IMG/VR virus record: IMGVR_UViG_2609460125_000008
DNA: 10,114 nucleotides
Source: a virus
Lineage: Duplodnaviria; Heunggongvirae; Uroviricota; Caudoviricetes
Reading direction: 5' to 3' (one strand)
This document shows positions 7,654-8,427 of the stretch, one piece after another. Positions within the stretch are counted from its first letter, which is position 1. The number at the start of each line of letters is the position of its first letter. The notes under the pieces are model-generated. The model was not told the origin of the DNA. It made no database searches and worked only from the letters and a program-made list of their open reading frames with translations. The position numbers were made by a program, and so were the translations under genes.

Positions 7654-7867
7654 CTCCCAGGCGTTTAAACATTTTTCCGGGCTGAAACGCCACCAGCGGA
7701 TAACTCAGGGTATGAGTACGTCCCTGAACCTGGCAGACAACCTTCTGGCTTTCGGTACTGACCAGGCAAACCCGCAGAACGTAGCCGTTGCTGGTGGTGA
7801 ACCACTGCCCCACACGGGGGCAATGGTTGTATCGGTGATACAGGAAATTAACGATGTGGCGGATCAT
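7634..7867 (-). CDS. Hypothetical 77-aa protein between Rha and the replication initiator
   Basis: ATG overlaps the Rha stop (ATGA). Contains several Cys/His residues. No family recognised; could be spurious. Confidence 0.4.
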   Translation of the reverse strand: MIRHIVNFLYHRYNHCPRVGQWFTTSNGYVLRVCLVSTESQKVVCQVQGRTHTLSYPLVAFQPGKMFKRLGGGYASV

Positions 7868-8427
7868 GGGCGCACCTCCTTGTCAGAACCATTCAGCCTG
7901 GAATCAACAAGTGCAGCACCAAAAACAGCATCACCTACACGGTCGTACAGTTTGCCAGCCAGCGGAGATTCAACGGCCTTAAGCATTGGGTAAAGCTGGC
8001 TTGTCCAGATTTGATGGATTTCACGCAAATGCAGGTATACGCCTCTGGCGTTTTGTGCGACAGATGACATGTCAGCCGCACCAGCTCCTGATAAGCTCCT
8101 CTCCATCTGGTTAAAGGCATTGATGTATGCCTCTTTGAACCGGGCGGTACGTTTACCAGTGAAGCCCATAGCAAGGAAGGCGAAGCCGCCGCGGGTAATT
8201 TGGTAGCAGGGAAGTTTGCGAGTACCGCCGTTGGGCTGGCGTACCAAAATTGATGTCTCCGCAAAATTGCGGGCACAAAACTCTGGAGAACAATCCAAAA
8301 TGCGGATCTTTTTCAGAACATCGTCATGACGTTTAGAGAAGAAGTTGGCAACAGCCAGGGATGAAGTAACAGCCTAACCATCAACGATGGCAATTTCAGG
8401 TTGAGAGAGGGTTGGGAGAGTAGTCAT
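7864..8427 (-). pseudogene. rha: Rha-family phage regulatory protein (ORF6N/KilA-N-like) interrupted by an in-frame amber codon at codon 18
   Basis: ATG at 8427 with AGGGG Shine-Dalgarno; reads MTTLPTLSQPEIAIVDG-TAG-AVTSSLAVANFFSKRHDDVLKKIRILDCSPEF...TRGGFAFLAMGFTGKRTARFKEAYINAFNQME. The conserved Rha N-terminal motif spans the stop at 8374-8376. The two track ORFs 8374..9204 and 7864..8298 are in the same frame. Confidence 0.7.

Follow-up and report, generated by a model that had tools for sequence, protein, structure and literature searches.

A decaying cassette for a putative Rha antirepressor, of the isrK-orf45-anrP kind, probably nulled by an inherited amber codon in a Shigella flexneri prophage

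A stretch of Caudoviricetes DNA (IMG/VR record IMGVR_UViG_2609460125_000008), taken here as a single window of 10,114 nucleotides, carries on its minus strand a Rha-family gene that appears to stop almost as soon as it has begun. The locus raises the question of whether this stop is a genuine and inherited lesion, where the gene that it interrupts begins, and what kind of genetic unit has been disabled. From an ATG at 8427-8425 the reading frame passes through 16 further sense codons to a TAG at 8376-8374 (codon 18), and is then open to a TGA at 7866-7864. The TAG is the sole stop separating an ORF called as 276 aa (8374-9204) from another called as 144 aa (starting at TTG 8298); direct reading of the frame confirms the earlier statement that the two share one frame with no other break. 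When the TAG is read through as Gln, the resulting 187-aa product gives a full-length match to the Pfam domain Phage_pRha (PF09669) over residues 21-110, with a score of 89.1 bits against a gathering cut-off of 29.9 bits. The frame and the domain match together agree with the view of the initial annotation that this is a Rha-family gene broken by one in-frame amber at codon 18. The amber precedes the entire domain, and the window holds no uninterrupted coding sequence for it. The stop had also been said to fall within a conserved N-terminal motif of Rha; this is correct for the stretch PTLxQPEIxxxxGQAVTSS, which spans the TAG and is conserved among close homologues, and incorrect for the Pfam domain, which begins 3 codons past the TAG. 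The features of the locus, listed broadly in the direction of the gene, are these:

8677 to 8705, minus strand: putative isrK promoter, with -35 TTGATT (8705-8700), a 17-nt spacer and -10 TACACT (8682-8677)
8594 to 8670, minus strand: IsrK-type sRNA gene (Rfam RF01394, 58.1 bits, gathering 50, full length 1-77)
8482 to 8569, minus strand: C4/STnc1160-like structured RNA (Rfam RF01695, 74.8 bits, gathering 45, full length), overlapping the leader ORF
8428 to 8565, minus strand: leader ORF of 46 codons, the equivalent of orf45, with a conserved ATG at 8565-8563 in frame with the Rha ATG
8469 to 8479, minus strand: second copy of GATTGGCGTCC, a b2-like target box just past the C4-like RNA and 42 nt upstream of the Rha ATG
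8436 to 8440, minus strand: Shine-Dalgarno sequence AGGGG for the Rha start, conserved in position in homologues
8374 to 8427, minus strand: Rha codons 1-17 and the amber TAG (8376-8374), the latter an ancestral CAG (Gln) in homologues
7864 to 8373, minus strand: rest of the Rha-family ORF, codons 19-187 and TGA, which would now be untranslated, with D80G (8189) and A94T (8148)
7634 to 7867, minus strand: 77-aa ORF, a conserved neighbour whose ATG overlaps the Rha stop (ATGA) and which has its own strong Shine-Dalgarno sequence, AAGGAGG

The ancestral state of the codon is given by alignment to intact Rha homologues, a check that the initial annotation had proposed, and it is CAG (Gln). CAG at codon 18, in an uninterrupted frame, is found in three homologues from E. 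coli prophages (with identities of 99.2, 94.9, and 91.8% over 837 bases) and in four from phages (identities of 75.3-89.9% are listed for three of them, and the Stx1_699 locus is placed among the phage homologues from this identity listing). With CAG in every intact homologue fetched, the earlier description of the lesion as a one-nucleotide nonsense mutation is upheld, and on these alignments the amber is a single C>T transition that converts Gln18 (CAG) to TAG.

Inheritance of the allele can be followed directly. Ten chromosomes or contigs, found by way of the adjacent 77-aa protein, are 99.7-99.98% identical to window positions 4634-9647; the TAG is present in seven of these, including LR213452, which is S. 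flexneri AUSMDU00008355 (PMC9376355), and CAG in the remaining three. The TAG allele yields two split ORFs, one of 204 aa that the TAG terminates and one of 127 aa, a fragment of Rha. Each occurs on at least 1000 contigs in public data under the name S. flexneri, 5a M90T and 5b 8401 among them. The intact, fused ORFs of the CAG allele occur on 596 and 132 contigs, and those that are named are also S. flexneri. In 469 complete E. coli genomes carrying a 73-nt segment of the locus the TAG allele was not found (0/469, the best match having one mismatch), and the exact TAG-bearing 36-mer had no match among GTDB species representatives. A sequencing or assembly error, with a sense codon as the true state, would accord with the amber being a single-base difference from the closest E. 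coli homologue; against it stand the same TAG in seven independently assembled chromosomes or contigs, the split ORFs on at least 1000 public contigs, and the further linked derived SNPs that the TAG genomes share in a nested pattern, which together leave such an error a negligible probability. The amber is a real and inherited allele, polymorphic within S. flexneri, and resequencing is unnecessary because the allele recurs across many independent S. flexneri assemblies.

Upstream of the gene lie several elements that the initial annotation had missed, namely an IsrK gene, a C4-like RNA gene, and the in-frame leader ATG at 8565. Homology to E. coli prophages starts at about 8708-8712, at the putative -35 element. 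The core of the putative promoter (ATTGATTCTGC ... GGGACGTTACACTGT) is conserved in all eight Rha-type homologues, with a few substitutions in the spacer, and it aligns with the sequence TTGACA-17-TATATT upstream of Gifsy-1 isrK; it matches 8 of 12 consensus positions and was not listed by a promoter scan. The IsrK-type gene ends in an intrinsic terminator, a hairpin at 8616-8599 followed by a T run, and contains a b1-like box, GATTGGCGTCC, at 8647-8637. The structure of the C4-like RNA is evident in its covariation, with compensatory changes at 7 of 27 predicted pairs across seven homologues and with swaps of the hairpin tetraloop between GNRA and UUCG types (GCAA, GAAA, UUCG). Within this RNA the sequence ACGCCAACCC (8510-8501) is complementary to both of the GATTGGCGTCC boxes, and the window contains two copies of GATTGGCGTCC where 0.01 would be expected by chance. 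The Rfam c4-a1b1 model matches weakly at 8683-8631 (17.8 bits, E 0.049, gathering 46.7), and the best duplex between IsrK and the leader, at -60.5 kcal/mol by RNAduplex, is modestly separated from shuffled sequences (-45.8 +/- 4.5, best shuffle -62.5).

The beginning of the Rha protein within this arrangement is marked by several kinds of evidence. The Shine-Dalgarno sequence lies 8 nt from ATG 8427, and at the same spacing homologues have AGAGG, GGAGG, or CGGGG. Nucleotide homology to Gifsy-1 continues as far as the start codon of anrP, the counterpart of ATG 8427 in the alignment; the proteins encoded past this point, Rha in the window and AnrP (STM2616) in Gifsy-1, are unrelated (BLASTP E 0.17). 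Because the homology extends to the ATG and the downstream proteins are unrelated, ATG 8427 would represent the joint of a module. Codon-position periodicity was counted over seven diverged sequences, and the variable columns at the three positions number 21/21/18 from isrK to the leader ATG, 26/29/29 in the leader ORF, and 26/14/52 in the N-terminal half of Rha; the periodicity thus begins at ATG 8427, with none upstream. A start at this ATG, preceded by a good Shine-Dalgarno sequence, had been proposed initially, and the Gifsy-1 homology joint, the codon periodicity, and the conserved ribosome-binding site and ATG all agree with it, so that ATG 8427 is supported as the functional Rha start.

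The leader ORF opens at nt 106-108 of the isrK transcript, counted from 8670, and its start is conserved in all 14 loci checked. No stop lies between the leader ATG and the Rha ATG, in the window or in any Rha-type homologue; the frame upstream of 8427 is open in eight of eight such homologues, the indels there (-1/+1, +3, and +3) preserving it. Ribosomes initiating at ATG 8565 would meet the TAG as codon 64, and the leader ORF of the window now has 63 codons. Leader ORFs elsewhere have 33 codons (VT2-Sakai), 35 (phiV10), or 8 (a Yersinia phage), and the leader is probably translated although its peptide is not conserved. In Yersinia phage vB_YpM_41 (locus L020, about 1286-1312) the C4 tetraloop is GUAA and makes an in-frame TAA at leader codon 9. 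Because of this TAA, the leader ORF cannot be universally open in C4-type cassettes.

The order of these elements recalls the isrK-orf45-anrP cassette of the Salmonella prophage Gifsy-1. There, read-through of the IsrK terminator gives rise to an inactive isrK-orf45-anrP mRNA, which IsrK opens in trans, allowing translation of orf45 and, coupled to it, of anrP; AnrP in turn switches on the antQ operon and prophage induction, and expression of AntQ is toxic (Hershko-Shalev et al., 2016; PMC4825925). The same authors place the first orf45 AUG at A107, and relate IsrK to SeqA of P4 and the orf45 region (STnc1160) to the P4 CI RNA (Hershko-Shalev et al., 2016; PMC4825925). The window shares with Gifsy-1 the order and spacing of promoter, IsrK with its terminator, C4/STnc1160-like RNA, leader ORF at about nt 107, and cargo ATG, as well as the IsrK box and the complementary C4 box. 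It differs in its cargo, which belongs to the Rha family and is inactivated by the amber codon, and in its position upstream of the replication genes, the Gifsy-1 cassette lying downstream of Q. The cargo was considered as a homologue of AnrP and rejected as such for want of significant similarity. The leader differs also: orf45 of Gifsy-1 ends in AUGA after 45 codons, whereas the 46-codon leader of the window runs in frame into the cargo without a stop. A Gifsy-like AUGA leader frame was sought and discarded, the -1 frame being closed by a TAG at 8441-8439, four codons upstream. With the RNA-level features present and the AUGA stop and AnrP homology absent, the locus is, as far as sequence comparison can tell, a Rha-cargo variant of the IsrK cassette with its cargo knocked out.

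A further parallel is offered by the immI region of phages P1 and P7, which reportedly consists of the c4 antisense RNA, icd, and ant, as said to have been described by Citron and Schuster in 1990 and reflected in Rfam families RF01695 and RF03163. Much as in immI, a C4-family RNA in the window is flanked by candidate b1-like and b2-like boxes, with no a-type boxes identified, and is followed by an antirepressor-type gene. In the window, however, the place of the upstream target element is taken by IsrK, an sRNA with a terminator of its own. The reported logic of the Gifsy-1 system is one of activation by IsrK and not of repression by C4. In Stx phages and E. coli prophages, close homologues of the window's gene bear the annotation Rha or antirepressor; the gene differs from them in being broken before the domain and in having two substitutions at invariant residues. 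We infer an antirepressor function for the Rha protein from its family and from Gifsy-1 AnrP, itself of a different protein family.

The open frame upstream of ATG 8427 admits another reading, in which the true protein is a long Ash-Rha fusion (such as the 286-aa product of RefSeq E. coli O121) and the amber lies deep inside it. Besides the open frame in all eight Rha-type homologues and its frame-preserving indels, this reading can draw on a match of Pfam Phage_ASH to the upstream translation (window 8398-8682, minus strand) and on public annotations of homologues as fusions, in the form of long 'Rha family' CDSs (for example of 286, 340, and 383 aa) that span the RNA region and begin right at the end of the preceding gene or with a slight overlap. 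The Phage_ASH match, however, covers the same DNA as the -10 of the isrK promoter, IsrK, its terminator, the C4-like RNA, and the leader. The variable sites of this region lack the codon periodicity that is found in Rha, and its substitutions track RNA pairing. The same conserved nucleotides are used in another frame in Gifsy-1 orf45, and in other phages the leader spans only 8-35 codons. On this balance a long fusion is very unlikely. The Ash 'domain' looks like a translated RNA leader, and the public Ash-Rha CDSs look over-extended; a search of the literature for a link between C4 and the Ash family or Phage_ASH returned nothing relevant. The 276-aa ORF was likewise rejected as a real gene, since it consists of the isrK/C4 leader in its 3' third and otherwise of the antisense strand of a Gp49/HTH_3 gene pair.

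A shorter in-frame fusion of 233 aa may start from the leader ATG at 8565, and the TAG would kill it too. A tentative proposal, with perhaps a minority chance of being correct, is that selection has kept the leader in frame and that the antirepressor is produced either with the leader fused to it (233 aa) or in this form and the 187-aa form together. If true, leader and cargo would be coupled in a manner other than the AUGA reinitiation of Gifsy-1, what is widely annotated as an 'Ash' domain would be no more than an RNA leader in translation, and both isoforms would be lost to one lesion, the S. flexneri amber. In E. coli O121 (NZ_CP119441; positions 1665-3837 of locus L001) three tandem cassettes each have the conserved leader ATG (MVG...) and an in-frame Rha-like cargo; they are annotated ash, ash, and Rha family, and overlap by 4 nt. 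They are preceded by two antirepressor-like genes (Rha family and BRO-N), making five putative antirepressors in the array.

With ATG 8427 as the Rha start, the effect of the amber depends on what could follow it. The only in-frame restart codons past the TAG are TTG 44, TTG 61, and ATG 87, all of them within the Phage_pRha domain, and neither TTG is accompanied by a Shine-Dalgarno sequence. An amber suppressor was sought among the four tRNAs of the prophage, tandem genes at 3030-3340 (minus strand) for Met-CAT, Arg-TCT, Thr-TGT, and Gly-TCC, and all four are ordinary. Because no usable restart appears downstream of the TAG and the prophage tRNAs are not suppressors, the Rha allele is most likely null. 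These tRNA genes lie between the Q gene (3540-3956) and the lysis genes, where tRNAs and stx are located in Stx phages; toxin genes are absent here.

The lesion does not stand by itself. The initial annotation had regarded the gene as otherwise intact, which the sequence contradicts, as both D80G (8189 A>G) and A94T (8148 G>A) fall at residues that are invariant in seven homologues. Within the 850-bp module there are five changes derived in S. flexneri, and they form a nested series: 8653 T>G and the TAG are common to all TAG genomes, 8547 G>A and 8189 A>G are found in a subset of these, and 8148 G>A is private to the window. In stem 1 of IsrK the change at 8653 leaves A.G in place of an A-U pair, and in the C4 hairpin the change at 8547 disrupts a G-C pair; both are non-canonical in the Rfam alignments. 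All five are damaging in type (one nonsense, two missense at invariant residues, and two stem-breaking), a pattern that fits relaxed constraint over the whole cassette.

Downstream consequences may extend beyond the Rha protein. Termination at the amber leaves 506 nt untranslated, including a C-rich and G-poor stretch at about 8273-8193 (C 0.32-0.38, G 0.19-0.26), and Rho-dependent polarity on the 77-aa ORF and the replication genes is plausible on this composition. Beyond the cassette the gene order is 77-aa ORF, O-like, DnaC-like, DnaB-like, Q, the four tRNAs, and the lysis genes; a Pfam search of the 77-aa ORF gave no hit. These genes had been described as coupled by ATGA overlaps, which applies to two of the four junctions (Rha/77-aa ORF and DnaC-like/DnaB-like) and not to the others, where the 77-aa and O-like genes overlap by 14 nt and the O-like and DnaC-like genes are separated by a 10-nt gap.

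Shigella genomes are marked by IS expansion and gene decay, and the surroundings of the cassette are of this character. Past a junction at 9647/9648, in the place of the ninB of related Shigella genomes, an IS3-family orfA (HTH_Tnp_1) occupies 9684-10022, and an IS fragment lies near 255-438. This 184-bp segment (255-438) matches a stretch beside an IS copy that interrupts the O-like gene in a related locus (L006). In the S. flexneri lineage that retains CAG (loci L009, L010, and L012; about 3221-4129) a 1-bp indel splits or removes the call of the O-like replication gene. With the TAG in Rha in one lineage and the indel in the O-like gene in the other, a different gene of this prophage module has been inactivated in each of the two S. 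flexneri lineages. The locus thus resembles other Shigella prophage pseudogenes in its lineage-restricted nonsense allele, its flanking IS elements, and the different lesions of sister lineages, and judged from the window it is an ordinary lineage-specific pseudogene in a defective prophage. Divergent from the cassette, at 8740-9373 on the plus strand, is a pair of genes for Gp49 (HigB-like, PF05973) and HTH_3 (102 aa), located where related phages have cI/cro; the homology of the window to E. coli prophages stops at the edge of this pair (about 8708). The pair may be a toxin-antitoxin system, or may supply the repressor partner of the antirepressor.

Taken as a whole, the locus is very probably a decaying prophage antirepressor cassette of the Gifsy-1 isrK-orf45-anrP or P1 c4-icd-ant kind, nulled by an amber codon in S. 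flexneri. In the mechanism proposed, the promoter at 8705-8677 would drive an IsrK-type sRNA that ends at its intrinsic terminator, and transcripts reading through it would pass the C4/STnc1160-like RNA, which holds the leader ORF (ATG 8565), into the Rha antirepressor gene (ATG 8427), whose translation IsrK and C4 would control. A C>T change in a S. flexneri lineage then converted Gln codon 18 from CAG to TAG, such that ribosomes from either ATG would stop at 8374, before the whole Rha domain, and the antirepressor would be null. Further decay of the cassette has followed inside an IS-flanked prophage remnant.

An alternative to simple decay is that selection maintains the amber, either as a means of keeping the prophage 'grounded', with no induction or Q-mediated toxicity, or as a leaky stop that attenuates the dose of antirepressor. 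When a near-cognate tRNA reads through UAG it often inserts Gln, the ancestral residue at this codon, and the TAG allele is very common in S. flexneri. Loss of the gene could be of benefit in that the AnrP pathway of Gifsy-1 leads to toxic AntQ and prophage induction (Hershko-Shalev et al., 2016; PMC4825925). The frequency of the allele can, however, be accounted for by clonal descent, and the CAG allele is itself common in the species, as the contig counts given above indicate. No independent second inactivation of the Rha gene was seen, and the damaging changes that followed the TAG, in invariant Rha residues and in RNA stems, argue against retained function. Maintenance by selection is accordingly given little credence, at a level similar to that of the long Ash-Rha fusion, though neutral decay and selected loss as such cannot be told apart from these data.

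As an inactivated gene, the amber-killed Rha is one more among those of the prophages of S. flexneri, with little bearing on biology at large. The cassette in which it lies has some consequence for annotation, as the CDSs named 'ash family protein' and the long 'Rha family' CDSs of E. coli and Shigella overlie a promoter, an sRNA with its terminator, and a C4-type RNA, and annotation pipelines may mis-call the IsrK/C4 cassette. The natural TAG/CAG polymorphism within S. flexneri provides near-isogenic material bearing on the role of an IsrK/C4-controlled Rha antirepressor.
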